In this document: piece after piece, positions 11,545 to 62,145 of the stretch
Layout of the letters: each line of letters starts with the position of its first letter
Numbering within the stretch: the stretch's first letter is position 1
Source of the DNA: Anaerolineales bacterium
Lineage (GTDB): Bacteria > Chloroflexota > Anaerolineae > Anaerolineales > UBA6668
Length of the DNA stretch: 64,000 nt
NCBI GenBank assembly: GCA_020630175.1
Contig: JAHDBW010000003.1
Span: 11,982-75,981 of the forward strand
Reading direction: 5' to 3'
The notes under the pieces: model-generated
The model's input: only the letters and a program-made list of their open reading frames with translations
The model's database searches: none
What the model was told of the DNA's origin: nothing
Made by a program: the position numbers and the translations under genes

Positions 11545-14106
11545 TTAATTTACGGCGAAAACCCAAGCCAATCCATTGCTGAAGACAAGAGAATAGTGCG
11601 CTGAATTGAGGAATTTATCTGGGGTGAAGTGTTGGCCTTGTGGACCAATGTAAACGTGCGTGACGCCTTCCGTTGCAAGCGCACTCAAGAATTCGGGCGT
11701 GTTGACGTCAGTTGTTTCCCAGGCGATGGTGCCAAAGTCAAAAACACGCTGGGCATAGGGCTTGTTATAGGTGTACCAGAAGGTTGGCGTGGTTGTGGTG
11801 CGGCCAGTGACCGCCGGAATCCAATACCCCGCATCTGCGCCAGCCCAGACGGTTCCGTCATACCAAGGCCACAGATTGATTAGAAAGTGATCGTCCAGCG
11901 TGGTGTTGGCATTGATCCAGTCTAGGGCGGCCATATCAGCTTCTGTGCCTAGCACTGCGCCCGGTTCAATCACGTCTAGGCTGTGGCGCAGGCCAAAAAT
12001 AGTGACCGTCCCAATTAATATGCCTAGCGCTAATCTGGCAAACGTGTGCTGTAGCGCTGGAAACAGGGTTGCTTCACGCTTGGTCAACGCAGTGTAGAGC
12101 GGTTGTGCAAATGCAATGTACAGCAAGAACGCAAAGCGAACGAAGACAATTTGGCTGTCAATTAGCCAGTCTGGGGCGAGGGCTAGCCATGTGATGCCCG
12201 CCCAAATAATCTCTACTAGCATCCACAAGATCAGCCCTAACTTAGTGTTGATGAGGTGCCAAACGGCATAGCCCACAGCAATACAGGCGGGGACAAAGAG
12301 CGTAATGTAGAACGTGTGGTTTGTGATGACCCACGTTGTGCGTAGCCCAAACTGGTCAAGGTTCAAGATTACAAATTGCAAGACCAGCCAAGCCGTAATA
12401 ACAAAGCCCCAGCGTTGACGGTGCCAAATCGCGAGGATCAACCCTAAGATTGCTAATGGCAGCCAGTAAGGCTCTACAAAAGAGGTGACATAGTCAACTG
12501 GGAATTTGGTGTAAGACGTGGTGCCGGATGAGAGTGCCTTTTGGGCCGATTCTGCCTGACGTACAACGTTGCTATACACACGCCACATCCACGGGCTAGA
12601 GAGGCCTAGCGTGATTGCGCCCGCAATGGTCCAGAGGGGTAAACGGCGCCAGTTGAAGAGGGCACAGGCCACGGCGAACACAATGAAGAATGCAATAACG
12701 CGAATATGAACAATGCTTAGCCCCGCCGCTAAACAGCCAATGATTAGCGCCAGCTGCCAACGTTTTTCGATTGATTTTGTTTGCGGTAACGCGATGCCAA
12801 TCCACATGAGCACGAGCAGCGTGATTTGTCCGGCTAACTGCGTAATGCGCCCCCAGTCTGTGAATTGATTAGGGAAGCGCGAGATAAACCCAACAAATAT
12901 GAGAGCAATGATGCCAATCCAACGGGTCTTTGTGATATTTGCGGTGAACGCATAAGCTGCCAGTGCCGCGCCAATTACAAGTAATTGAGTGAAAACTAAG
13001 AAAATATCTGTCAGGGCAAGGTGCGGCAACATCAGTTGTAGCGTGCCCACAATCGCGTGTAACCCAATGTGATAGTAGAGCGGTGTCTCAAATAATTGTG
13101 GCCCAAGCGTTGGCGCAATGTTGCCCGCCTCTAGCAGAATGCGCGTGAGTAAGGCGTGGTTGGGCACATCTACCAGCGCTGGTAACACTAGATGTTGCAC
13201 ATTGAGGATGCGGGTCAGAAAGAGCAGGCCGGTGAGGACGAGCAGGGTGATTGTGGCTGAATCTGATGCAGGGCGCGCAAAAACGCGCTTGAGCGATTGG
13301 CGCCGTTGCCACAAAAAGATCCCACTAAGCGTGAGCATTAGCAGCCACGTGTTTAGGCTGGTCCAGCGCAGGTTGAGTTGTGTCATCCCCAGCCATAGCA
13401 GGGCGGTGACTGAAATGCCGCTCCCAAACCCGAAGGCAAGCTTGCTAATGCGGTCTAGGCTAGCGTATTGCGGGTGGAGTTGTAGCACCAACAAGCCCGG
13501 CAGGATTAGCCCAATTAGCGTTGCGGCGCTGACCTGTAGCCAGCGCGGTAGCCATTGAAAAACGCCGCTGACAGCTTCTGTTGCGGTGAGCCGATAGCGC
13601 GTTTCAAAACGAATGTCGCCGGGATTAGCGGCGATGGCTGTGCCAGCGTGATAGCTGTCATAATCACTGCCCCAAAGGGCGACAACATCAGCGGTATTGC
13701 TGGCTGTTATTGCAAATTGATATGACTTGTCTTTTGAAAAATGCTGGGCAGGAAAGCCAAATTCGAGGATCGTATTGTGCGCGAGTGCAGTAACGGCTTG
13801 CTGCGTTGTTGCAAGCACAGCGCCATTTTGATCTAGTAGGCTCGCGTTGAAAACAGTGGTTGTGTTGGTGAGCTTATCAGGTTCAAAGACAGCGATCCAA
13901 ACTTTGATTTTGGAAAACCCATGATGGGTTGCGGTAAATGACTGCCGCAGTTGGTTGTCATTATCTTTGAAATGAAAAACTGTTGTATTGCGGCGTTGAA
14001 CTGTATCAATGCGCTCAATGGGTTGCCACCATAGCAGCAGCATCAAGAGCGCGGCCAACCCCGTGCCAACTAGCACCCAAGTTGGTGCTTTGCCCAGCTG
14101 TTTCAA
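11545..14106 (-). CDS. large polytopic membrane protein, possibly a GT-C-type glycosyltransferase
   Basis: 853 aa: N-terminal TM helix, extracytoplasmic domain, more than 12 TM helices, C-terminal soluble domain. The functional assignment is only an architecture-based guess. Confidence 0.55.
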   Translation of the reverse strand: MKQLGKAPTWVLVGTGLAALLMLLLWWQPIERIDTVQRRNTTVFHFKDNDNQLRQSFTATHHGFSKIKVWIAVFEPDKLTNTTTVFNASLLDQNGAVLATTQQAVTALAHNTILEFGFPAQHFSKDKSYQFAITASNTADVVALWGSDYDSYHAGTAIAANPGDIRFETRYRLTATEAVSGVFQWLPRWLQVSAATLIGLILPGLLVLQLHPQYASLDRISKLAFGFGSGISVTALLWLGMTQLNLRWTSLNTWLLMLTLSGIFLWQRRQSLKRVFARPASDSATITLLVLTGLLFLTRILNVQHLVLPALVDVPNHALLTRILLEAGNIAPTLGPQLFETPLYYHIGLHAIVGTLQLMLPHLALTDIFLVFTQLLVIGAALAAYAFTANITKTRWIGIIALIFVGFISRFPNQFTDWGRITQLAGQITLLVLMWIGIALPQTKSIEKRWQLALIIGCLAAGLSIVHIRVIAFFIVFAVACALFNWRRLPLWTIAGAITLGLSSPWMWRVYSNVVRQAESAQKALSSGTTSYTKFPVDYVTSFVEPYWLPLAILGLILAIWHRQRWGFVITAWLVLQFVILNLDQFGLRTTWVITNHTFYITLFVPACIAVGYAVWHLINTKLGLILWMLVEIIWAGITWLALAPDWLIDSQIVFVRFAFLLYIAFAQPLYTALTKREATLFPALQHTFARLALGILIGTVTIFGLRHSLDVIEPGAVLGTEADMAALDWINANTTLDDHFLINLWPWYDGTVWAGADAGYWIPAVTGRTTTTPTFWYTYNKPYAQRVFDFGTIAWETTDVNTPEFLSALATEGVTHVYIGPQGQHFTPDKFLNSAHYSLVFSNGLAWVFAVN

Positions 14107-14112
14107 ATTGAA

Positions 14113-14331
14113 TTACCCTTGTGGGGTTGGGGGCGTCATTGGGACTGGTGTTGCCGGGTAGGCGGTTGGGCCAGCGGTCGGTGGGCCAACTGTTGCTGGC
14201 GCTGACGCATTGTCCCCGTTTGTAGGGGTGACAGAATTGTTTGATTTACAGCCGGCAAGGCCAATTGCCAACGCAATTAGCAAAGCTGAGATTAGAGTTG
14301 AAAGCTTTTTGAATGTAAGTGAAGAATGCAT
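14113..14331 (-). CDS. small Pro/Thr-rich lipoprotein
   Basis: Signal peptide with lipobox LAGC. Lies 6 nt upstream of the 853-aa membrane protein gene. Confidence 0.55.
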   Translation of the reverse strand: MHSSLTFKKLSTLISALLIALAIGLAGCKSNNSVTPTNGDNASAPATVGPPTAGPTAYPATPVPMTPPTPQG

Positions 14332-14875: not shown

Positions 14876-15056
14876 AAAATACCTCTTCTAAAATACGGAC
14901 TACAACTACGTGTGTATTACCTCCTTAATAGTAAAGGGCAAGCCTTGTTTTTATATTCAGATTTAGTATTAGTTTGGTAATAAAACTGTTCGAGTATTTT
15001 GCTTTTGTCAACTGATGCGTGTTGCTTGCCGATATTTGGCATGTTATGATGCTTTT

Positions 15057-16256
15057 ATGACGTCTGAAGAAAGAATTCTTGTCATTGATCAAGACGAAGC
15101 AGCCCGCGAGCTGCTCATGTATGAAACGCTACAGCCCGCAGGCTATGCGGTTGTTGCTGTTGATTCGGCTGCAAGCGCTTTAGAAATGCTGGGCGAATTT
15201 CCGCCGGATTTGCTGATTACCGATCTGCAAACTTCTGGGTTTAGCGGCAAAGACCTTATCACCGCATTAAAAGCACAAGGTGTTGATGCGCCGGTAATTG
15301 TCTTAGTTGAAGATGGCAATGAGCAAAGCGCGTTGGATGCCTTCCGGCTTGGCGCGGTAGATTACCTGACAAAGCCATTGCGTGAAGCTGAAGTTGTTGC
15401 TGCGGTAGACCGCGCAATGCAGAGCATTCGCATTCAACGCGAAAGCACTGCGATGGCGGGTAAGCTGCAATTGGCTAACACCTCGTTAGAAAAGCGCGTT
15501 CGCGAGCTTACAACGCTGATTGGGGTTGCGAAAAGCATTACGAACCTTAATAACGTTGAGGCGCTGTTCAATCGCTTGGTCAGTGCTGGCTTGTATGTCA
15601 CAAATGCCGATGTAGGCTGGCTACTTTTGCTCGATGATAAAACAGGCGAGTTGCGTTATGAAACATCGCAAAACCTGCCTGATGATCTGCCAAAGAAATT
15701 TGTGCCGCAGCGTGGCGCAAAATGGCATGCTGGCATGTCGCCAATGATTATGTTGTCTGGTCAGCCCTTGATGTTACATGGGTCGCGGCTTGAGAAGTTC
15801 TTGCTTGGCCGCTTTGCAAAAACAGCGTTGGTTGTGCCGATTATGGTAAAAGATCAGCCGGTTGGCACGATTGTGATGGCCCGGCATGAAGATCAACCGT
15901 TTGGCGATCGTGATAAAACGATGTTAGCCGCAGTTGCAGACTATGCGTCAGCAGCCGTTGTTAATATTCGTTTATTCCAAGCCTTGGAATTGCGTGCTGA
16001 AAAATTAGACATGCTCAATCAAGAGATTATCTCTGGCGAAAAAGGCCGTGATGATATGCTGATTAGGCTTGGCGAGATTTTAGATAAACCGGTCAAAAAG
16101 GCACTTTCTGGCATTGAAAGCCTAGCCCAAGGGGATTTAGGCGATTTGACCGATGATCAGACCCAAGCGCTCTCAACAGTGTGGGAACATCTTGGCTTAG
16201 CCGATGAACTTATCGATACGCTGCGGGCGGGCACGTCTCAGATCATTGAGCAATAA
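15057..16256 (+). CDS. response-regulator receiver + GAF + DHp-like C-terminal domain
   Basis: Start at ATG 15057. REC hallmarks (DQDE, ITDL, LTKPL), a coiled coil, a GAF-like core and a C-terminal HisKA-like helix pair lacking His. Confidence 0.8.
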   Translation: MTSEERILVIDQDEAARELLMYETLQPAGYAVVAVDSAASALEMLGEFPPDLLITDLQTSGFSGKDLITALKAQGVDAPVIVLVEDGNEQSALDAFRLGAVDYLTKPLREAEVVAAVDRAMQSIRIQRESTAMAGKLQLANTSLEKRVRELTTLIGVAKSITNLNNVEALFNRLVSAGLYVTNADVGWLLLLDDKTGELRYETSQNLPDDLPKKFVPQRGAKWHAGMSPMIMLSGQPLMLHGSRLEKFLLGRFAKTALVVPIMVKDQPVGTIVMARHEDQPFGDRDKTMLAAVADYASAAVVNIRLFQALELRAEKLDMLNQEIISGEKGRDDMLIRLGEILDKPVKKALSGIESLAQGDLGDLTDDQTQALSTVWEHLGLADELIDTLRAGTSQIIEQ

Positions 16257-16282: not shown

Positions 16283-16315
16283 TAAAAAAGGCGCTCCAGT
16301 TGGAGCGCCTTTTTC
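16283..16315. terminator. bidirectional intrinsic terminator
   Basis: GGCGCTCCA-GT-TGGAGCGCC stem flanked by an A-run and a T-run, between convergent genes. Confidence 0.75.
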
Positions 16316-16335: not shown

Positions 16336-16800
16336 TTATTGCAACACTAGCTCTTGGGCAGGCTGGGGATATGGGCTGAAGTGAAAGTCTTCAACCTTTG
16401 TAAGATCAATGCTTGTGGTAAGCACGTTATCCCAAGCCAGCGCAACTGCGCGAATTTGAGTCATGATGTTGTCACGCGTTTCGCGCTCAAATTTATTGAG
16501 CTCTTGCCAGCGACTGGTGTAGTTGAAACCGGCAACCAAAATCCCAGAGATTGCATATTGCAGCGCATAGGGAAGTTCACAAGGAACATAATTTTCAGTT
16601 TGTGGGTTGTGGTGTTGTTCGATAACACGGAGGCAGCGAAGTATGTCTTCAACGTGGGGGGTGATATCGACGCGTTTACCAGTGACATCTGCGCAGTGTA
16701 GGGCATAAACAAAACTGCGGTCTGAGTGTGGATGGCCTTGGATTTGACCAGCGGGATTGGCGTGTTCCTGCAAACGTATTAAAGCATCTGGGTAATTCAT
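16336..16800 (-). CDS. hypothetical protein (154 aa)
   Basis: Clean ORF with its own AT-rich upstream region. No motif recognised. Confidence 0.5.
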   Translation of the reverse strand: MNYPDALIRLQEHANPAGQIQGHPHSDRSFVYALHCADVTGKRVDITPHVEDILRCLRVIEQHHNPQTENYVPCELPYALQYAISGILVAGFNYTSRWQELNKFERETRDNIMTQIRAVALAWDNVLTTSIDLTKVEDFHFSPYPQPAQELVLQ

Positions 16801-17114: not shown

Positions 17115-17930
17115 CTAAAGCGCCTGTTTTGAAGGGGGAAATGCGTTTCCAGATGCAATAGGGGTCACTGATCCAGTTAACAGAATAGTGTTTTGGTTAG
17201 AAATATCAACATTAAGCAATCCACCGCAGGTTTGTACAGTTACCTGATTTTTTACATATTGCAACTGATTTGCGGCGGCAGCGGCGGCGCAACTGCTGCT
17301 GCCAGATGACAATGTGTAACCAGCGCCGCGCTCCCAAATTTCAATTTTGATAGTGTCTTGATCAACGCGTTCTAAGAACTGAACGTTGGTTCGATTAGGG
17401 AAGTTGGCGTGGGTTTCGATAGATGGACCGAGCGCTAGCGCAGTCGCTTTTGTTGCGGGCTGGCCTAACACAACACAGTGTGGGTTACCCATTGAGACCG
17501 GTAGGTATTGAATTTGCGTTTGATCTGGCAGGGTGAGGCTTTTTATTGCGGGGGCAATGGTTGCAGTGCCCATCTCAATTTTGATTAATGCATTAGATAG
17601 CTTAGTGGCACGCCTTTTAGCAAATGGGGTTTGCAGGACGATGGTGGTTAAGGCTGGGTCAGCGTCGAATAAGTACCGCGCAAAAATTCTTAGGCCGTTG
17701 CCGCTGGTTTCTGCTTCGCTGCCATCTGGATTGAAAATGCGCAGTTTTGCCACGCCAGCCGCAGCGGAGCCATAATCAATAAGCAGGCCGTCACTGCCTA
17801 CGCCAAAGTCAGTGTGGCATAGCCAGCGTGCAATGTCTGCTTCGGTATGCGTTGCGACTGCACTGGCTGGCACCACAATGTACGTGTTGCCAAGCGCCTG
17901 ATATTTTGAAAACTGAATGGAATGAGGCAA
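17115..17930 (-). CDS. DapF-fold (diaminopimelate epimerase family) protein with Ser at both catalytic Cys positions
   Basis: Collinear with DapF: FSKYQALGNTY, RIFNPDGSEAETSGNGLR, SMGNPHCV, ERGAGYTLSSGSSSCAA. The TTG start directly abuts the kinase stop codon. Confidence 0.8.
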   Translation of the reverse strand: MPHSIQFSKYQALGNTYIVVPASAVATHTEADIARWLCHTDFGVGSDGLLIDYGSAAAGVAKLRIFNPDGSEAETSGNGLRIFARYLFDADPALTTIVLQTPFAKRRATKLSNALIKIEMGTATIAPAIKSLTLPDQTQIQYLPVSMGNPHCVVLGQPATKATALALGPSIETHANFPNRTNVQFLERVDQDTIKIEIWERGAGYTLSSGSSSCAAAAAANQLQYVKNQVTVQTCGGLLNVDISNQNTILLTGSVTPIASGNAFPPSKQAL

Positions 17931-19970
17931 CTAATAAATTGAGCCAGTTGTTGCAGGTTGTGCAATTTGTCGCGTGGTGTGCACAAGGGAGTTGGTTGTA
18001 TCTAAGTTGTTGGTTGCAATTGTTGTGTCGTAGCGGGCAGGTAGCGTAATGCTGAACTGCGAGCCCTTCCCAGGGATGCTCTGTAAAGTAACTTCGCCTT
18101 GATGCAACTCTGCAAGTCGCTTTACTAGTGCCAGCCCTAAGCCTGATCCATCGTGGCGGCGGTCTAGCCCAGCGTCTAGCTGTACAAACGGCTGAAATAG
18201 CCGCTGTTGATCTGCGACAGGAATGCCGGGGCCGGTATCACCCACCATAAACTTGATTTGCGACGTATTGCGGTTCAAGCTTGTTTTTAGCCCAATGCGA
18301 CCGCCGGGAGGGGTAAATTTCACGGCGTTGTTGAGCAAGATAAGCAGCATTTGACGCAAGCGTTGCTCATCAGCATAAATTGATGTGATGTCAGGTGAAG
18401 GTGAGTATTTGACGCGGATGTTTTTCTCTTTTGCGGTTTCCGCAATAACATCTAGCGCGCTTTGGCAAATGTCACTGACCAAAAATTCATCTGGAAAAAT
18501 TTCTAATTCACGCGTGTCACTGCGCGTAATATCTAGAATGACATTGATAAGGTCGAGCAGGGCGCTGCCACTTTGATGAATCAAATTGACGGATTTGCGC
18601 TGTTCTGGACTGAGGGCACCGTAAATATCTGCATCTAACGACTCAGACATGCCTAAGATCGCGTTTAGCGGCGTGCGGAGTTCGTGACCCATGTTGGCCA
18701 AGAACTGATCTTTTGCAAGCAGCGCGCTTTGCAATTCATTGTTTACTGCGCCAAGCTCATGCGTGCGTTCGCTAACGCGTTGGGCCAAGCTATGGCGTTC
18801 CATCTCAAGCTCTTGGTTGACTGTTGCAAGTTCTAATGTGCGTGTTTGTACGTTTGCTTCGAGTTTTTCGTTGGCGTATTCCAATTGGCGGGCAGTGCGT
18901 CGCAATTCTGTAATATCGTGAAACACCAAAATATGCCCAACTGGAATGTTGTCATCTTTGCGGTTTTGAACATGCGAATAGTGCAGATCGTATTCGCGCA
19001 TTTCTGTGGTGCGGATATCAGACTGAATCTCGAGGGCAATTTGCATTTGCTTTGGAACATTGTTCTTTAGCAATTGCAAGACTTGCGGATAGTTTTGGAA
19101 TAACAACGCGGCGGGTTTGCCAAAGTTTCCTTTATCCCCAACGCTAAACATCTCACGTGCAACCGGATTGATTTCAACAGCACGCATTTCTGGGTCTAAT
19201 ACAATCACGGCATCGGCCAAACGGTCTAATACCGCTTGCCGTGCAATTGGGACCACATCCAACAGGCCAAACCAGAACACGCCTAATGCTAGGAAGAATG
19301 CGGTTAGTGTAAATGCAAATGGGGAAGGATCAATTAGCCCAAACGGACTGCGGCCAGAAAGGTATAGTGCGTTGGAAAGCCACGGCACAAGTACACCCAA
19401 GACGATAAAGATAACTTGCCACGAGTAGGTGGTGCGACGCCCTCTAAACAGCTTGCGCACCAGCATAATTGAGCCAATCAGCAGCAATATATAACTGTAA
19501 GCTGCATTAACGTTGAACCATTGCCCATAGCTCAAGACTTCAATTAAGGAGAAACGTGAGAAGCTGACGAGCTGATACTCATCCCAGATCAGGTTGTGAC
19601 TAGCGTTTGTGAACATCAAGAAGATGGTCACGAGCGGCACAATTAGCAGTAAGCCAACGTAGCGGTTGCGGTGTTTTGTAAAGGGTTCATAACCAGCGTA
19701 TTCAGCTGCGAAGCCTAACCACATGACGGGGATTGTGGTGATGCCAATATACTGTACCGCCGCCCAGACAATTTTGGCGTTGACCTCGTCGTTCCAGATT
19801 TCTAACGCATAGCCAAGACACCAAATTGCGCATCCTAGCGTCAATAAGGTAAATGGTTGTGATCCTGGCTTTCCAGAACGTGTGTAGGCGAATACCGCAA
19901 AAAATAGGCACAAACTTGCTGAAATAAGCAGCAAGCCGACCAATGCGTAAGATGGCTCTAGCATGGTCAT
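17931..19970 (-). CDS. sensor histidine kinase with N-terminal 7TM domain
   Basis: 7 TM helices, PAS-like region, coiled coil, H-box GHELRTPLN, and N/G1/G2 boxes (NNAVKFT, DTGPGI, GSGLGL). Confidence 0.9.
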   Translation of the reverse strand: MTMLEPSYALVGLLLISASLCLFFAVFAYTRSGKPGSQPFTLLTLGCAIWCLGYALEIWNDEVNAKIVWAAVQYIGITTIPVMWLGFAAEYAGYEPFTKHRNRYVGLLLIVPLVTIFLMFTNASHNLIWDEYQLVSFSRFSLIEVLSYGQWFNVNAAYSYILLLIGSIMLVRKLFRGRRTTYSWQVIFIVLGVLVPWLSNALYLSGRSPFGLIDPSPFAFTLTAFFLALGVFWFGLLDVVPIARQAVLDRLADAVIVLDPEMRAVEINPVAREMFSVGDKGNFGKPAALLFQNYPQVLQLLKNNVPKQMQIALEIQSDIRTTEMREYDLHYSHVQNRKDDNIPVGHILVFHDITELRRTARQLEYANEKLEANVQTRTLELATVNQELEMERHSLAQRVSERTHELGAVNNELQSALLAKDQFLANMGHELRTPLNAILGMSESLDADIYGALSPEQRKSVNLIHQSGSALLDLINVILDITRSDTRELEIFPDEFLVSDICQSALDVIAETAKEKNIRVKYSPSPDITSIYADEQRLRQMLLILLNNAVKFTPPGGRIGLKTSLNRNTSQIKFMVGDTGPGIPVADQQRLFQPFVQLDAGLDRRHDGSGLGLALVKRLAELHQGEVTLQSIPGKGSQFSITLPARYDTTIATNNLDTTNSLVHTTRQIAQPATTGSIY

Positions 19971-20188: not shown

Positions 20189-21898
20189 CTACAGGTACCC
20201 TTCATCGAAATCACTTTTAGCACTTTCATAGGCAGTTTGCTGGTCGTCTTCATTTAGATACCCAACCGCACGATAAAGCGTTTCGTCATAGTCGCGGGTT
20301 TTGATCACAACTGGCATCGGCACTGCATGGCCTAATATCAATGCTTGCTGTTGCGTATCTAGCCGGGCTAACACTTCACGTAGTGAGCTTGCGCCACTAA
20401 CCCCAGAGAACACTGCGCGAATATCAGCTTCGTTATCAAGCAGGGCGGTGACGCGCGTGCCGATCTGGCTCATGACTTCATCATCGATTCCGCTTGGGCG
20501 CTGATCTACGACTAACAAAGTGACGTTGTACTTGCGTAGCTCACGGGCAATCGTGCCAAAAATTGTGTGTTTTGCAATTTCTGGATCAAGAAACTTGTGC
20601 GCTTCTTCGATCACAATCATCAGCGGTTTGGGTTGCGCGCCTTTTTGGGTTGTCGCCTTGTTTTTCGCCTCAACATAACGCTGGTGAACGCGGCGCGTGA
20701 GGTAATTTGCAACCAGCATATAGGCGGGTAGATTATCCCCATGCTTGCCAAATTCGAGCACGACACTGGTGCCATTGGTGAGCTTGTCGAAGATTTCGGT
20801 AACAACATTGTTGCTACTTTTTTCAACGAGAAAATCCATGCGCCGGAATAGTTCAAACTTCCGTTGGATAGCACTCAACGTGCCTTTGACCAACATGCCT
20901 TCATCAATAATCGTGTCGATTTCGTCACTGCCTTTTTCATCAAGTAACTTGGCGACCCAGTCTTTGCCTAATTTGCGGCGTAAATAATAGAGTGCGCCCG
21001 TTTGCACGTCGGACAGGTTCAGCATGCTGCTGAGCATTTCTACATCGGCGGGCTCAATATCTGAATATTGAATTTGGAATTCACCTGAAATTGTGTTGTT
21101 CCGCGCGCGCGATGTTTCTGCATCCAAGGTGTATAGGCTAGGGCGATTGGACGCAAGGATCTGGGTTAGCCCTTTCCACGTTTTGCCACGCTCATTCGTG
21201 ATTTCCCAGCCATAATCGCTGTGCATGTCAAAAATCAGACAAGAGGCTTTTTGCTTTGCAATCACGGCGGCTAACAAGGTCCGGGTGATAAAGGATTTCC
21301 CGGTCCCGCTCTTGCCAAACACGCCTGAAGACCGTTCTACAAAGCGATCTAGATCAAGGTTGACCTTGACGCCATCCATATCCAGCGGTGACCCGATGTA
21401 AAAGTGGTCGTCATCTTCTTCACCAAAGACTTGGTTTACGTCCTCTTCAGTGGCTTTGAAGACCGGTGAAAAGTGCGCTGGAATGGTCTTGTTAGGACGC
21501 GGTTCTTTGGCGTCTTCTTCTAACATCAACATTGGTGAGATGTTGGCGCGACCATAGGCGACGGTTGCGCGATAAATGTCCGCTAAGAATGGGCTGCTTG
21601 GGTCTGGTGGCGTTTGCTCAATGGCTGGATTGGTGTTATCTAAGATGATGTCCGTCACAATTGAGAAGAACTTCCGCTTCGTAAGCCCTTGCGCCACAAC
21701 GTAACGCCCAACGGCCATGTCTTCAATGGTTTGGCCAACGGCAGAACTGCTGTCTAGTTTGACCGTAATGCCCTTAGAAAGCGAACCGCCAACCACAACG
21801 CCGAGGCGTACGCGCGCTTCCTCACTGGCAGTGTCATTTTCTAATCCGATGGGGCGATTGTCTTCATCGCGTGGTAAAAAATCGTCTAAGTCGCTCAT
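20189..21898 (-). CDS. herA: HerA/FtsK-superfamily ATPase (DUF87-type)
   Basis: N-terminal barrel-like segment, Walker A GKSGTGKS, Walker B LMIVIEEAH, and LLVVDQRPS. Confidence 0.8.
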   Translation of the reverse strand: MSDLDDFLPRDEDNRPIGLENDTASEEARVRLGVVVGGSLSKGITVKLDSSSAVGQTIEDMAVGRYVVAQGLTKRKFFSIVTDIILDNTNPAIEQTPPDPSSPFLADIYRATVAYGRANISPMLMLEEDAKEPRPNKTIPAHFSPVFKATEEDVNQVFGEEDDDHFYIGSPLDMDGVKVNLDLDRFVERSSGVFGKSGTGKSFITRTLLAAVIAKQKASCLIFDMHSDYGWEITNERGKTWKGLTQILASNRPSLYTLDAETSRARNNTISGEFQIQYSDIEPADVEMLSSMLNLSDVQTGALYYLRRKLGKDWVAKLLDEKGSDEIDTIIDEGMLVKGTLSAIQRKFELFRRMDFLVEKSSNNVVTEIFDKLTNGTSVVLEFGKHGDNLPAYMLVANYLTRRVHQRYVEAKNKATTQKGAQPKPLMIVIEEAHKFLDPEIAKHTIFGTIARELRKYNVTLLVVDQRPSGIDDEVMSQIGTRVTALLDNEADIRAVFSGVSGASSLREVLARLDTQQQALILGHAVPMPVVIKTRDYDETLYRAVGYLNEDDQQTAYESAKSDFDEGYL

Positions 21899-22482
21899 AG
21901 TAAGCTCTCCAAGCGGCGTAAGATGGTGTCCAGACGTTGGAAGTCGTTCCCCATTAACTGGGCTAAATATTGCCCAGCGGTGCGTAGATATTGCGCCCGA
22001 TTTGGGTGGGCTTGCGCGGCTTGTTCTAGGACGCGCACGGTTAGTTCATCTGTGGGGGCGTCACTGGCTTGGAAGATCAACCTTAGAAAGTTGAAATCAC
22101 TTGTGAGCGCGGCAATTTCGGTATGTTCGCACAGCGCAATGTGGCTCAGCGTGAGCGGCGGTTGCGGTGGCAAGCCCGTGCGTACTTTTGTGCCTTGCAT
22201 ATAGCCAAGCGTTAGCACGCTTACCTCAATCGGCATTTGACGCTGCCGCTGATCTTGAATGATTTCAATCGGCGTGTCTTGATTGCCAACAATCTGCCGC
22301 ACAAGGTCATCATCTTCTAAAACAATGTTATAGATGGTGCCAATGGCGTGCGCAGTGCCGTTTTGAATAGGAACTTTTACAAATGCACCAAAATGGGGCA
22401 TCTCTGGTTTAGGAATAGCACAGCCAAAGGTGAAGCTCTGAATAGAGCTATGTAATAGCTGCCCGATTTGAATAGGCGACAT
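21895..22482 (-). CDS. 195-aa protein of unknown family, N-terminus HAS-barrel-like
   Basis: ATGA overlap with herA and a 5-nt gap after nurA. The N-terminal ~60 aa follow the same hydrophobic/Gly pattern as the HerA N-terminus. Confidence 0.6.
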   Translation of the reverse strand: MSPIQIGQLLHSSIQSFTFGCAIPKPEMPHFGAFVKVPIQNGTAHAIGTIYNIVLEDDDLVRQIVGNQDTPIEIIQDQRQRQMPIEVSVLTLGYMQGTKVRTGLPPQPPLTLSHIALCEHTEIAALTSDFNFLRLIFQASDAPTDELTVRVLEQAAQAHPNRAQYLRTAGQYLAQLMGNDFQRLDTILRRLESLL

Positions 22483-22487
22483 GATAG

Positions 22488-23717
22488 TTATCTACGTTTT
22501 TTGCGGCGTTTGGGTCTGGTAGACCCTTTCAGTTTTAGTTTGGCAGACTTGTGCGGCACGATGTTCTTCTTTAACAGTTCGCGGGTCAGCATATTTTCTA
22601 CGACCGTGCGATCTTGCGTTTGAATGACAGCTTCACCATCGGCGCGTGCCAGTGCATATGGGTAGTGCACGCCAGCGGTGTATTGTGATTGGCTGACCAA
22701 GGTTGCATGTAACAGGGCGATTTGCTCTGGATTGGTCGCAATCCACTCTGGTATTTCTACGCGCACCACGACTGGTGTTTCAGCAACCAAGCTGACATTC
22801 AAATAGAAAATGTGAATGCTATGCGTTTGATTGGCTCTTTCTTGTAAGGTGCGCTTGCGATAGGGCTCATTCCAGCCCGATGTTGTTTGGAAAATGGCGG
22901 ATCGCTCCCCCGGTCCCAAGTGTTTTTGAAACACGGCTCGATCAGAGACACCACCAAAGGGCGGCTCTTTTGCTTCAATTGCAACGTCTAATGCGTCTAT
23001 TTCAAAGCTAGACAGCCACAGCAGATTCAAAACTGGACTGCCGCCAGGTTGGTCTACATAGCCTGCCAACGCGCAGTCGCAATCGGCTAAGCGGTCCATT
23101 GCTTTTAGGTGTCGGTTATAAAGATAGCCAGTTTCACGCGCCGAAATGCCTTCCCCTTGCGTGCGGAGTGCGATTGGCCCGTCGATCAAGCTGACAACTG
23201 GGTGTGGCGAGGCTGTTCCCGTGTCAAGGCTGAGTTCGGTCAGGCCTTCCATTTCTGCCACAGTGCGACGTAAGTTGACCAGCGGCACCGTCACCATACG
23301 TCCGTCTACCAATACATCTTCATTTGATGCGGCAAGCACGGTATTGCGCACAACGGTTGGGGCTTCACCAGAGCCAATCTGGATAATAAAAGCGCCAATG
23401 TTTAACAAGTAGTATTGCAATGCAGAATGTTTATCGGGATAGATTTGAGACCCATCAACAGCGATCACCGTTGCTCTAGGCGTTTGTGCAGGGCAAGGAA
23501 AGGTTGCGGCAACATTTTCACCAGTCGGCTTCGCGCCACTCCATTCTCTGCTGGCGGCCGCGATTTCAGCTTTTGCATGCAAATCTTGCATAGCGCTAGC
23601 GGCGTTGAGTTGAATCAGCGCGGCTGGAATCAATTTGCTGTGTTGCGTAATACGATCTGCAATCGCATTACCAGCGTCTTGAATTTGGTGGGTGATGGCT
23701 TGGATGTTTATACTCAT
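22488..23717 (-). CDS. nurA: NurA-domain nuclease with polybasic C-terminal tail
   Basis: IAVDGSQ, SLIDGPIAL, GYVDQPGGS and YPYALARADGEAV motifs in NurA order. The C-terminus is KLKLKGSTRPKRRKKRR. Confidence 0.75.
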   Translation of the reverse strand: MSINIQAITHQIQDAGNAIADRITQHSKLIPAALIQLNAASAMQDLHAKAEIAAASREWSGAKPTGENVAATFPCPAQTPRATVIAVDGSQIYPDKHSALQYYLLNIGAFIIQIGSGEAPTVVRNTVLAASNEDVLVDGRMVTVPLVNLRRTVAEMEGLTELSLDTGTASPHPVVSLIDGPIALRTQGEGISARETGYLYNRHLKAMDRLADCDCALAGYVDQPGGSPVLNLLWLSSFEIDALDVAIEAKEPPFGGVSDRAVFQKHLGPGERSAIFQTTSGWNEPYRKRTLQERANQTHSIHIFYLNVSLVAETPVVVRVEIPEWIATNPEQIALLHATLVSQSQYTAGVHYPYALARADGEAVIQTQDRTVVENMLTRELLKKNIVPHKSAKLKLKGSTRPKRRKKRR

Positions 23718-59091: not shown

Positions 59092-59730
59092 ATGTCGCTA
59101 AAATTAGTGCTTGCATCCCAATCTCCACGCCGTAAAGACTTATTAGCCTTTACTGGCCTTGACTTCGCTATCAAAATTGCCGCGATTGATGAATCCGCGC
59201 TTGAGAACGAAGACCCCGTTGCCTATGTGCGTCGGTTAGCCGCTGCCAAAGCGCAAGCCGTTGCAGACACATTGGACGCAGATGCCGTTGTGCTTGGCTC
59301 TGACACAATCGTGGTCTATGACAATATGCTGCTTGGTAAGCCAGCCGATGCTGCTGATGCCAAGCGCATGCTTTCTATGATCAGAGGCCAGACGCATCAG
59401 GTCGTGACGGCGTTTGCATTCGTCACAAAGTCTGAAGCATTGCTAGTCGCGCATGAATCAGCAGATCTTGTGCTGCGCGATTTTACTGACGCAGAAATTG
59501 ACGCGTACATCGCTTCTGGTGATCCGATGGATAAGGCCGGTGCTTATGCAATTCAAAATCAGGAATTCAAACCAGTTGCAACGCTTAACGGCTGTTTTTC
59601 TGGCGTGATGGGCCTGCCGCTTTGTCAGGTGACGCTAGCCTTGCGCGATCTTGGTTTTGATCCACAAGACAACTTCTCTCTAACCGATTTGCAAGAATGC
59701 GGTTGCAGTAATTTCGCAACTGATGTTTAG
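59092..59730 (+). CDS. maf: Maf-family nucleoside triphosphate pyrophosphatase
   Basis: LASQSPRRKDLL, GSDTIV, KAGAYAIQ motifs. Confidence 0.9.
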   Translation: MSLKLVLASQSPRRKDLLAFTGLDFAIKIAAIDESALENEDPVAYVRRLAAAKAQAVADTLDADAVVLGSDTIVVYDNMLLGKPADAADAKRMLSMIRGQTHQVVTAFAFVTKSEALLVAHESADLVLRDFTDAEIDAYIASGDPMDKAGAYAIQNQEFKPVATLNGCFSGVMGLPLCQVTLALRDLGFDPQDNFSLTDLQECGCSNFATDV

Positions 59731-62145
59731 TTGCGAACGCCAATTATGCCCTTAACTGCCCATACAAAATCAATGATCCGCTGGCTTGGCTTGCTTACAA
59801 TTTTGCTTGTAACAACGGCTTGCGGCACAACTAGCAGCACGCCAATTACTGATGTTGAGCTGTCTGAAACGTTGCAGGCTGCGCCAGCCACTGAACTGCC
59901 AGAGCCGGAAGTTACTATAGTAGAAGCCACGCCTACACCAGAGCCTGTGCAGCCTGAAGCCGTGATTTCAACGTATCTTGAAGCGTGGAATATGCGTGAA
60001 TACAACACCATGTATAGCTTGCTTTCGCCATTTTCACGGTCTGAAATTTCAGAAGAAGACTACATTTTTCGGGTCAAGCAGCAAACGCAGCAACTAACCT
60101 TAGAAGGCTTGGACTACACAATCCTAGGGGCCTTAGCTGAAGGTGTTAGCGGGCAAGTTCAATATAAAGTCAACTTCGACACGCTGCTTGTCGGCCCGCT
60201 AGAACGTGAATTTTCTGCCAATCTCGATTTCACAAACAATCAATGGGGCATTGTCTGGAACGATAATTTGATTATGCCAGAGCTAGAAGGTGGAAACTCC
60301 TTGTATATGGCACACAAAGTTCCGGCACGTGGCAATATTTACGACACGAATGGCCTCGCGTTAGCCGCTCAAGCTGATGCAGTTGGCATGTACATAATCC
60401 CCGGTCAATTGGATTTTGAACGCGAATATGACATGCTTGAAGACCTATCTGATATTACCGGGTTGCACCCAGAAGTGTTGCGGCAGCGCTACATTTATGC
60501 TGGCCCAGACTGGTTCATCCCCGTTGGCGAAGCGTCACTGTCTGAAATCCAAAACAACTATGAGCGCTTAGAGTCTTATCCCGGCTTGTACATCAACACT
60601 TATAACACGCGTTATTACAATTCTGGCGCTGCTGGAGCGCCGCACGCCGTTGGGTACGTGTCATTTATTACTGAAGAAGAGCTAGAGTTTTATATCAACA
60701 ATGGCTATCAGGGTGATGAGAAAGTTGGGCGCTTAGGCGTTGAACGCTGGGGTGAAGAAAATCTAACCGGCGCGCGGGGTGCAACGCTGGTTGTGTTGAA
60801 CCCAGACAATACCGTGCGCATGACGCTAGCCGATAGCGTCTCTTCGCCAGCAGTATCCGTCAATCTGACCTTAGATCGTGAGTTCCAACGCGCGGTACAA
60901 CTTGCCATGCAAGACCTGACCGGCGCCGCAGTTGTGCTAGATGTCAACACTGGGAAGGTGCTAGCGATGGCCTCTAACCCAAGCTTTGACCCGAATTGGT
61001 TCGATCCGGCTAATCCAAATATCAATGCGTTGGGTGAAATCTTCAGTAACCCAAATCGCCCGCTAATCAACCGTGCCACGCAAGGCTTGTATCCGCCAGC
61101 TTCGACTTTCAAGGTGATTGGCGTAGCCGCAGCGCTGGAATCAACGTTGTTCAACTCAGAGCAAATTATTTATTGTGGCCACTACTGGGACAGACTCGGC
61201 GCTGGGTTTGAAAAGCGCGACTGGACCGTTGACAAAGATAAAGAGCCCTCCGGTGATCTTGATATTGTTGGGGCGCTCCGGCGTTCTTGCGATCCGTGGT
61301 TTTATGATATTGGGTATGACCTGTATCAATGGGATCCCAATTACTTTTCTGAAATGTCGCGTGCGTTTGGGTTAGGGGAGCCAACAAACGTGTTGGGTCT
61401 TAGTGCGCAAGCCCAAGAGGAAGTTGGTGGGTTAGTGCCAGACGTGGCGTGGGCAGCAAATTCTGATGGCAATTGGCTGTTAGGCGATAGCGTAAATATG
61501 TCGATTGGGCAGGGTGATTTACTAACAACGCCGCTTCAGATTGCAAATGCGTATGCGGCGATTGCCAACGGCGGAACGCTCTATCAACCGCAACTTATCC
61601 AATCTACAGTGGACTTAGACGGCAACATTCTTGAAGAAATTGAGCCGGTTGTTATCCGCGAACTGCCTATTTCAGATGAAACGATCGATGTGCTGTGGGA
61701 CGGCCTGTATGACGTAATCCGGCACCCTGAAGGCACCGCTTATGACGTGATGGGCGCTTTCCCATTTGAAGTCTATGGCAAGACTGGGACTGCTGAAGAT
61801 CCACCCAATTTACCGCATGCGTGGTTTGCTGGGTTTACAGACGAGCAACGCGCCGATAAACCTGATATCGCTATTGCGGTCATTATTGAAAATAAAGGAG
61901 AGGGGTCAGAATTTGCTGCCCCAATCTACCGCCGGATTGTTGAACTTTATTTCAACGGCAAGCCAATCAACTTATACCCTTGGGAAGACTCTTATGGCCT
62001 ACCAAAGGCGCTTGTAGATGATGGCACCACGGATGAAGGCGCTGATGGCGCTACAACCGAAGGCGACGCAGCAACGACCGATGGTGCTGGTGCCGCTGAC
62101 GATGGAAGCACAAATGACACAGGTACAACCGAAGATGGCGGCTAA
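59731..62145 (+). CDS. class B penicillin-binding protein (PBP2-like) with N-terminal NTF2-like domain
   Basis: STFK, SIGQG-region and KTGTAE motifs, with an Asp/Gly/Thr-rich C-tail. Start is TTG 59731 or ATG 59746. Confidence 0.85.
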   Translation: MRTPIMPLTAHTKSMIRWLGLLTILLVTTACGTTSSTPITDVELSETLQAAPATELPEPEVTIVEATPTPEPVQPEAVISTYLEAWNMREYNTMYSLLSPFSRSEISEEDYIFRVKQQTQQLTLEGLDYTILGALAEGVSGQVQYKVNFDTLLVGPLEREFSANLDFTNNQWGIVWNDNLIMPELEGGNSLYMAHKVPARGNIYDTNGLALAAQADAVGMYIIPGQLDFEREYDMLEDLSDITGLHPEVLRQRYIYAGPDWFIPVGEASLSEIQNNYERLESYPGLYINTYNTRYYNSGAAGAPHAVGYVSFITEEELEFYINNGYQGDEKVGRLGVERWGEENLTGARGATLVVLNPDNTVRMTLADSVSSPAVSVNLTLDREFQRAVQLAMQDLTGAAVVLDVNTGKVLAMASNPSFDPNWFDPANPNINALGEIFSNPNRPLINRATQGLYPPASTFKVIGVAAALESTLFNSEQIIYCGHYWDRLGAGFEKRDWTVDKDKEPSGDLDIVGALRRSCDPWFYDIGYDLYQWDPNYFSEMSRAFGLGEPTNVLGLSAQAQEEVGGLVPDVAWAANSDGNWLLGDSVNMSIGQGDLLTTPLQIANAYAAIANGGTLYQPQLIQSTVDLDGNILEEIEPVVIRELPISDETIDVLWDGLYDVIRHPEGTAYDVMGAFPFEVYGKTGTAEDPPNLPHAWFAGFTDEQRADKPDIAIAVIIENKGEGSEFAAPIYRRIVELYFNGKPINLYPWEDSYGLPKALVDDGTTDEGADGATTEGDAATTDGAGAADDGSTNDTGTTEDGG

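Follow-up and report, generated by a model that had tools for sequence, protein, structure and literature searches.

Diaminopimelate epimerase (DapF), a target for antibiotics, is a textbook example of an enzyme that works with two thiols. We describe here a DapF-like protein with serine in place of both catalytic cysteines. It is encoded on the minus strand at 17115-17930 of a 64,000-nucleotide stretch from an Anaerolineales bacterium (assembly GCA_020630175.1, contig JAHDBW010000003.1, positions 11,982 to 75,981; this whole stretch is called the window below), directly behind the gene for a seven-transmembrane (7TM) sensor histidine kinase. In Anabaena DapF, the proximal contacts to diaminopimelate (DAP) are made by Asn13, by the backbone NH groups of Gly76, Asn77, Gly225 and Thr226 and by the Thr226 hydroxyl, and the distal contacts by Asn66, Asn164, Asn197, Glu215 and Arg216 (PMC12039745). 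The window protein keeps these contacts and belongs to a large clade in which both catalytic positions are serine. The reading that we prefer, with a probability of roughly 0.45, is that it would be a DAP-binding, probably DAP-converting, thiol-free variant of DapF that is co-translated with the kinase. A previous sequence-only reading of this DNA had proposed a DapF homolog tied to signalling, with the Ser/Ser pair as its hallmark; the pair turns out to define a clade linked to DAP, lysine and peptidoglycan metabolism instead, and the Ser/Ser DapF is more interesting at the level of this clade than as a curiosity beside a kinase.

The protein (271 residues, two DapF-type domains) is homologous to DapF from end to end, as had been claimed. 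It scores 206.7 bits over residues 5-263 against TIGR00652, the NCBIfam DapF equivalog model (cut-off 114.65), and 141.9 bits (E 1.3e-41) against PF01678 DAP_epimerase (cut-off 34.7); its scores against the models for bifunctional DapF/glutamate racemase (NF038284, 67.5 bits) and the histidine racemase CntK (NF033599, 18.4 bits) lie below the respective cut-offs of 350 and 300 bits. The AlphaFold2 (AF2) model, built from 120 homologs, has two pseudo-symmetric alpha/beta domains (predicted local distance difference test, pLDDT, 95.5; predicted template modelling score, pTM, 0.92), and DapF structures rank first in a Foldseek comparison (template modelling score, TM, 0.85-0.88). Four independent alignments, from HMMER against four solved DapFs and from MAFFT with E. 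coli DapF, place Ser76 (codon AGC, 17703-17705, minus strand) at the position of Cys73 and Ser209 (codon TCT, 17304-17306, minus strand) at that of Cys217. The HMMER motif pairs read "etSgng" against "qCgng" or "mCgng", and "tlsSgsss" against "tlaCgtga"; the E. coli motifs that the sequence-only reading had quoted agree with E. coli dapF. In the model, Ser76 precedes helix 77-90 and Ser209 precedes helix 210-222, which is the layout of the catalytic positions in DapF. Comparison with the curated families likewise leaves the protein above the DapF cut-off, with the O-ureidoserine racemase DcsC as a distant PDB match and no cysteine at a catalytic position. Because the thiol pair is absent, the classical two-thiol mechanism is impossible here, as was argued from the first. 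The change of the GNDF motif to GNTY is also real; however, 6 of the 10 nearest Cys/Cys DapFs have the same tyrosine, which is thus not tied to the loss of the cysteines.

The DAP-binding site itself is intact. Alignment to the Anabaena structure (9mro) equates its N13, N66, G76, N77, N164, N197, E215, R216, G225 and T226 with N15, N67, G77, N78, N149, N182, E200, R201, G210 and S211 of the window protein, so that every contact keeps the DapF residue; the serine at the Thr226 position is also found in E. coli. In an alignment of 139 diverse Ser/Ser representatives, N15, N67, N78, N149, N182, E200, R201, G210 and also His151 show 97-100% conservation, and 138 of the 139 have Ser or Thr at the Thr226 position. 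His151 is present in the window protein as well. Compared with their nearest Cys/Cys relatives, clade members are distinguished by S76, S209, S212 (Gly in Cys/Cys), Q184 (Glu) and K/R75 (Met). At positions 75, 76, 184, 205, 209 and 212 the consensus of the clade reads K S Q Y S S, against T S Q Y S S in the window protein. The exception at position 75 has company: K/R75 and the glycine pair GG103-104, present in at least 97% of the nearest 117 members, are both missing from the window protein (T75, F103/A104), two relatives have S75, and across all representatives K75 is only 73% conserved. Two candidates for a replacement of the lost catalytic residues were considered and rejected, namely a relocated cysteine pair C38/C152 (both residues are found in Cys/Cys DapFs too, and C152 reaches only 81% conservation) and Tyr205 or Lys75 as an essential base (each is about 73% conserved, and a MurE fusion described below has Asn at position 75).

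The extent of the clade was established from two homolog sets: the 120 best matches among 5.8 billion proteins, and the 8,360 DapF-superfamily proteins (E<=1e-10) returned by an exhaustive phmmer search of 1.84 billion representatives clustered at 50% identity. All 120 nearest homologs have Ser at the Cys73 position, and Ser also occurs at the second motif wherever this is readable, typically as WERGAGYTL[AS]SGSSSCAA; both serines are invariant columns in this alignment and in that of the 139 representatives. Among the best 150 of the 8,360 representatives, 141 are Ser/Ser; 10 Cys/Cys proteins, first seen around rank 71, and 4 proteins with mixed pairs (S/T, S/C, C/S and R/S) are listed as well. 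In a neighbour-joining tree the Cys/Cys proteins group with E. coli, and the Ser/Ser proteins form essentially one large group with the window protein inside. The nearest neighbours of the mixed-pair proteins are Ser/Ser, whereas one Ser/Ser protein (P0383) with the canonical G212/E184 signature is placed among the Cys/Cys proteins; the exchange between Cys and Ser has thus occurred more than once (the representatives with mixed or odd pairs are P0331, P0374, P0281, P0291 and P0383). By these sequence criteria, the Ser/Ser state defines a large clade within the DapF family, conserved and so far uncharacterised, which comprises at least 141 clusters at 50% identity. With one genome taken per species, at least 597 matches to GTDB species are confirmed, and the matches listed include Verrucomicrobiota (many of them Opitutaceae), Planctomycetota, Bdellovibrionota, Desulfobacterota, Chloroflexota, Nitrospirota, Bacteroidota and Bacillota (for instance Sporomusa, Desulfosporosinus hippei DSM 8344 and Clostridium sp. 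LS), as well as Pseudomonas sp. 21. Named entries carry the label "diaminopimelate epimerase", and we found no NCBIfam model that separates the clade. There is no natural Ser/Ser member among the PDB matches, where serine at a catalytic position is confined to engineered mutants (C73S and C217S), and a full-text search of the literature returned no report on a natural Ser/Ser DapF.

What these proteins do is suggested by the genes to which they are joined. A Ser/Ser domain is fused to the DAP-adding ligase MurE (TIGR01085, 451 bits) in a cluster with 8 members from JGI, NCBI, ENA and Logan; two independent fusions place it behind LysA (TIGR01048, 360 and 410 bits); and fusions to alanine racemase (Alr) exist in both domain orders. 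Further fusion partners are a methyltransferase and a GGACT domain. In a metagenome-assembled genome of Bdellovibrionota, lysA overlaps the gene for the Ser/Ser::MurE fusion by 4 nt, and a gene for a LysA::Ser/Ser fusion is flanked by Opp peptide transporters on one side and an NlpC/P60-SH3 endopeptidase on the other. Two lineages have an operon of alr, the Ser/Ser gene, a second alr, peptidase M20, M55 D-aminopeptidase and S66 LD-carboxypeptidase, to which one of them adds C26 peptidase, LysA, M19 dipeptidase and Opp; judged from its gene content, this is a muropeptide-catabolic set. The loci with MurE, LysA or Alr fusions, or with lysA or muropeptide-catabolic operons, are L099 (5505-9178), L101 (8001-11113), L102 (8001-17470) and L103 (680-6969). 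Such a context is not general for the clade, because LysA or MurE lies near the Ser/Ser gene at only one (L060) of the 86 loci inspected for muropeptide-catabolic genes. Clustering and a Pfam census of the immediate neighbours found 68 on the same strand, which look like scattered housekeeping genes; none of their Pfam families is seen at more than two loci. Given the fusions and the DNA contexts, we link the clade with the metabolism of DAP, lysine and peptidoglycan, and a role in DAP metabolism is likely on this genomic evidence. The protein moreover behaves as a constrained enzyme, since it is more conserved than its syntenic neighbours in the main clade (81 vs 60%, 81 vs 51% and 83 vs 48% identity in syntenic pairs; range 71-83% vs 48-60%). 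The interchange of Ser and Cys among its members, with S/C, C/S and S/T variants closest to Ser/Ser proteins, also fits an enzyme.

The second element of our reading is the junction with the kinase. The kinase (17931-19970, minus strand; 679 residues) consists of HisKA_7TM (13-241), PAS (248-358), HisKA (419-486) and HATPase_c (534-645) domains followed by a C-terminal tail of 34 residues. Its stop codon TAG (17931-17933) is followed without a spacer by the in-frame TTG at 17928-17930, exactly as the sequence-only reading had described, and the six nucleotides 17928-17933 (minus strand) are a likely site of termination-reinitiation. The kinase ends ...GSIY-TAG, and the DapF-like frame continues TTG CCT CAT TCC ATT CAG TTT TCA AAA TAT CAG GCG CTT GGC AAC ACG TAC. 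This TTG is the sole canonical start that retains the conserved N-terminal FxKYxALGNxY. The public gene calls differ: that of NCBI (P0001, 253 residues; truncated region at 17875-17930, minus strand) begins at the GTG of codon 19, 18 codons downstream, and that of one of the two relatives introduced below (P0007, L002 9896-10000) at a later ATG giving 233 residues, and in both the conserved GNxY strand is lost. We therefore take the TTG as the true start, because only this start agrees with homology. The layout recurs as TAG|TTG in one relative (L001) and TAA|TTG in the other (L002), again without a spacer, and it has been kept although the N-terminus of the DapF-like protein and the stop codon itself have changed. 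Co-transcription with the kinase, which the earlier reading had deduced from the window, is borne out by this conserved junction. Recoding of the TAG is ruled out by the TAA at the same place in L002. The TTG start lacks a Shine-Dalgarno sequence, but only 15 of the 47 open reading frames (ORFs) in the window have one, and we dropped its absence as evidence of coupling. Abutment or overlap with whatever unrelated gene lies upstream is common among members of the Ser/Ser clade; together with the low use of Shine-Dalgarno sequences in the window, this makes the coupling weaker as evidence of a functional link to the kinase. A second zero-spacer TAG|TTG junction is found elsewhere in the window, between a Maf-like gene (59092-59730, plus strand) and an in-frame class B penicillin-binding protein gene (59731-62145, plus strand; predicted start) with MecA_N, PBP_dimer and Transpeptidase domains; the presence of the latter protein indicates that the organism makes peptidoglycan.

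Close relatives of the window protein exist in only two other genomes, GCA_020630225.1 (L001) and GCA_020630805.1 (L002). Both share the gene order NurA, 195-residue protein, HerA, 7TM-PAS kinase, Ser/Ser protein, 154-residue protein, and the convergent REC-GAF regulator is visible in L002. In the window the operon of NurA, the 195-residue protein and HerA (DUF87; 86% identical and syntenic in both relatives) lies directly upstream of the kinase (20189-23717, minus strand). For the neighbouring proteins, identity is 80-86% between the window and the relatives and 90-93% between the two relatives; since the three genomes are this closely related, their shared gene order is weak evidence alone. 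The Ser/Ser protein itself is much less conserved, with 48-50% identity between the window and the relatives and 58% between these two, against 91% for the neighbours. Its rate of non-synonymous substitution (dN) is 0.30 as compared with 0.04-0.07 for the neighbours, that is 4-7 times faster, which is the opposite of the norm in the main clade, where the protein evolves more slowly than its neighbours. As the synonymous rate (dS) was saturated or undefined, we did not use dN/dS and relied on dN and position-specific conservation instead. In the clade, 86 positions of the protein reach a conservation of 90% or more; 70 of them (81%) are identical in the three relatives, compared with 40 of the 185 others (22%; Fisher p = 5e-21), and the blocks conserved among the three are the ligand-site motifs. 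The retention of these family-conserved positions argues that the gene is not decaying. Besides K75 and GG103-104, the lineage has lost about 13 residues before the GNPH motif. The fast evolution around a preserved ligand site is compatible with the changed role that the sequence-only reading had suggested but does not prove one.

The three components of our reading that can be read from the genes, namely clade membership, retention of the DAP site and co-translation, are together highly probable; for actual thiol-free epimerisation, the chances come close to even without exceeding it. In the proposed mechanism, the two domains would close around LL- or meso-DAP as in DapF, and the conversion, either stereo-inversion or a closely related transfer of the C-alpha proton, would proceed by acid/base chemistry of hydroxyl groups. 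Ser209, backed by the retained His151/Glu200 pair, could form a Ser209-His151-Glu200 relay on one face of C-alpha, with Ser76 at the N-terminus of its helix acting on the opposite face. The window protein would be a low-abundance enzyme that is non-essential for flux, and since no ribosomes other than those that have just completed the kinase would translate it, its level would track that of the kinase. In many bacteria, the Ser/Ser enzyme would feed LysA and MurE; that the clade as a whole consists of working DAP epimerases that invert C-alpha without a thiol is a tentative proposal, to which we give somewhat less than even odds. On this view, the fast-evolving copy coupled to the kinase in the window would be a derived offshoot that might serve as a DAP sensor.

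Several points weigh against thiol-free DAP conversion. A hydroxyl group has a pKa of about 16 and is a poor acid/base for epimerisation, and no residue stands out among the 139 representatives as a new, clade-specific catalytic base. The genus Pseudomonas normally has a canonical dapF. The Ser/Ser gene of Pseudomonas sp. 21 consequently looks like an extra one; it lies between the genes for a urea transporter and a sodium:dicarboxylate symporter in an accessory-looking island (L023 9050-12286). In the kinase-linked lineage, the acceleration, the deletion of about 13 residues and the loss of K75 indicate that selection may no longer maintain the ancestral activity. Finally, in engineered Cys-to-Ser mutants of DapF-fold racemases less than 0.1% of the activity remains (PMC8225329), and it is for this near-complete inactivity that such mutants are used (PMC12039745, PMC11602996).

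The alternative that survives best, although we consider it unlikely, is that the window protein is a non-catalytic DAP sensor, a cytoplasmic ligand-binding accessory of the 7TM-PAS kinase whose open or closed form would dock and alter autophosphorylation, with translational coupling setting the stoichiometry. The junction kept without a spacer through changes on both sides of it speaks for such an arrangement, and so does a lineage-specific acceleration that spares the ligand-site motifs while the near-invariant K75 and GG103-104 and some 13 further residues disappear. The 34-residue kinase tail behind HATPase_c (17931-18035, minus strand) carries a motif NSL[VI]HTTR, just upstream of the junction, in all three genomes, which could be a docking site or reflect an RNA-level constraint on reinitiation. 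There is also a precedent for protein binding by this fold, as E. coli DapF binds and activates RppH (PMC6061791; PDB 6D13). However, three closely related genomes make for weak synteny, and no intermediate relatives were found among the 5.8 billion proteins or in the JGI metagenomes. The adjacency to the kinase, for which the sequence-only reading had asked whether it holds across the phylogeny, is seen only in the window, L001 and L002. No other kinase orthologs occur in the protein database or in the JGI metagenomes, where the matches are unrelated kinases (32-38% identical); besides the orthologs P0124 and P0125 (100% and 80%), the nearest other kinases have 28-52% identity over partial alignments, and neither of two 7TM kinases that were sampled, with 32-33% identity across 92-93% of the query, has a DapF-like neighbour. 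Kinases are likewise absent from the fusion partners of the clade, in which overlaps with unrelated upstream genes are common in any case. Moreover, the window protein keeps all clade-invariant residues, including both serines and His151, which pure binding would not obviously need.

Less probable still is a different substrate or chemistry, in which the Ser/Ser pair would mark a thiolate-free reaction such as the isomerisation, tautomerisation or dehydration of an activated DAP-like compound. In 3-hydroxyproline dehydratases, which share the fold, the catalytic Cys is replaced by Thr. This shift of proline-racemase homologs to dehydratases offers a parallel, and the clade-specific polar changes around the site (S212 for Gly and Q184 for Glu of the Cys/Cys proteins) would fit a change in chemistry. 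A further hint comes from plasmids. A tblastn search against plasmids mostly returned canonical dapF on mislabelled chromosome pieces, but two genes annotated as dapF, on a plasmid of Streptomyces sp. NBC_01216 (L097, 98-1042) and on Agrobacterium vitis plasmid pRvVAT039a (L098, 53-949), encode Ser/Ser proteins. Each lies directly downstream of a gene for a 2-oxoglutarate-Fe (2OG-Fe) dioxygenase, and their distal site is altered (GNPH to GVPH or GTPH; NRTN to EGTN or EGIN); they are a second natural Ser/Ser group that probably acts on another substrate. By contrast, the main clade and the window protein have all proximal and distal DAP contacts unchanged, and the fusion partners are enzymes that use meso-DAP itself. 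Models of DapF-fold enzymes with other substrates also give scores far below their family cut-offs (18 bits vs 300 for CntK), and DcsC is only distantly similar. That the gene is a decaying relic, drifting after loss of its function in this lineage and placed behind the kinase by accident, is very improbable: its non-synonymous divergence far above that of the neighbours, the disagreement of public gene callers on its start and the weak TTG without a Shine-Dalgarno sequence might suggest as much, but the full-length frame is intact in three genomes whose synonymous sites are saturated, the family-conserved positions are selectively retained, the model is confident (pLDDT as above), the junction is conserved, and Shine-Dalgarno use is low window-wide, so that the absence of one means little.

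The DapF-like gene is followed within the same transcription unit by the gene for a conserved protein of 154 residues (16336-16800, minus strand). Its function is unassigned; the protein has no match in Pfam, NCBIfam or PDB and shares 71-72% identity with the corresponding proteins of the two relatives, which are 92% identical to each other. No terminator-like site occurs in the gap between the two genes, and a strong one directly follows the 154-residue gene: an intrinsic-terminator-like, bidirectional hairpin with a stem of 13-14 bp and then a T run (16284-16315). Its position suggests that it would end both the unit of kinase, DapF-like protein and 154-residue protein and the convergent gene for the REC-GAF response regulator (15015-16256, plus strand), a candidate partner of the kinase that is syntenic in L002. 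Elsewhere in the window, an 853-residue polytopic membrane protein without a Pfam match (11545-14106, minus strand) is followed by a Pro/Thr-rich putative lipoprotein of 72 residues (14113-14331). An Rfam scan of the window gave no matches, and a tblastn comparison of the window and the other loci analysed showed no second DapF homolog in them.

If members of the clade are indeed thiol-free epimerases, a thiol/thiolate pair would no longer be obligatory in cofactor-independent amino-acid racemases of the DapF fold, and the clade would represent a new catalytic solution that is insensitive to oxidation and thiol reagents. Otherwise, it is a large DAP-binding family with an unassigned role that is misnamed in hundreds of genomes. 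In either case TIGR00652 and similar models give the name "diaminopimelate epimerase" to all clade proteins, and reconstructions of the lysine and peptidoglycan pathways in Verrucomicrobiota, Planctomycetota, Bdellovibrionota, Desulfobacterota, Chloroflexota and some Bacillota may rest on an assignment made from sequence only. The kinase-coupled copy is a candidate case of an enzyme scaffold that has been turned into a metabolite sensor for two-component signalling.

Compared with canonical DapF from E. coli, H. influenzae and Anabaena, the window protein has the same two-domain fold, length, DAP contacts and His/Glu pair and passes the curated cut-off, and its clade is linked or fused to LysA and MurE, as expected of a supplier of meso-DAP; the difference lies in the Ser residues that replace both Cys, together with S212, Q184 and K/R75. 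The same substitution at the same positions is known from engineered C73S and C217S DapF (PDB 2Q9H, 2Q9J) and from Cys-to-Ser mutants of PddB and HisR. These are single changes made in the laboratory, which leave less than 0.1% activity and trap the open form, whereas in the clade both serines are natural, invariant and under purifying selection. The 3-hydroxyproline dehydratases (PDB 4K7G, 6R76) resemble the clade in their superfold and in that a hydroxyl residue in place of a catalytic Cys goes with a change of reaction, but only one Cys is replaced in them, their pocket is another one, and they are only 9-16% identical to the window protein. DcsC, the histidine racemases CntK/HisR and PddB also have the DapF fold and are routinely annotated as DapF; in these enzymes the Cys pair is retained and the distal pocket altered, and the window protein is the reverse of this. 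The complex of E. coli DapF with RppH (PDB 6D13; PMC6061791) provides a precedent for protein-protein contact by a DapF-fold protein, although that DapF is an active Cys/Cys enzyme and its partner a Nudix hydrolase, whereas the contact with the kinase is only proposed here. Lastly, the arrangement is reminiscent of the auxiliary proteins of three-component systems, which are small soluble proteins encoded beside a sensor kinase and co-expressed with it; the adjacency described here, however, is confined to one narrow lineage.

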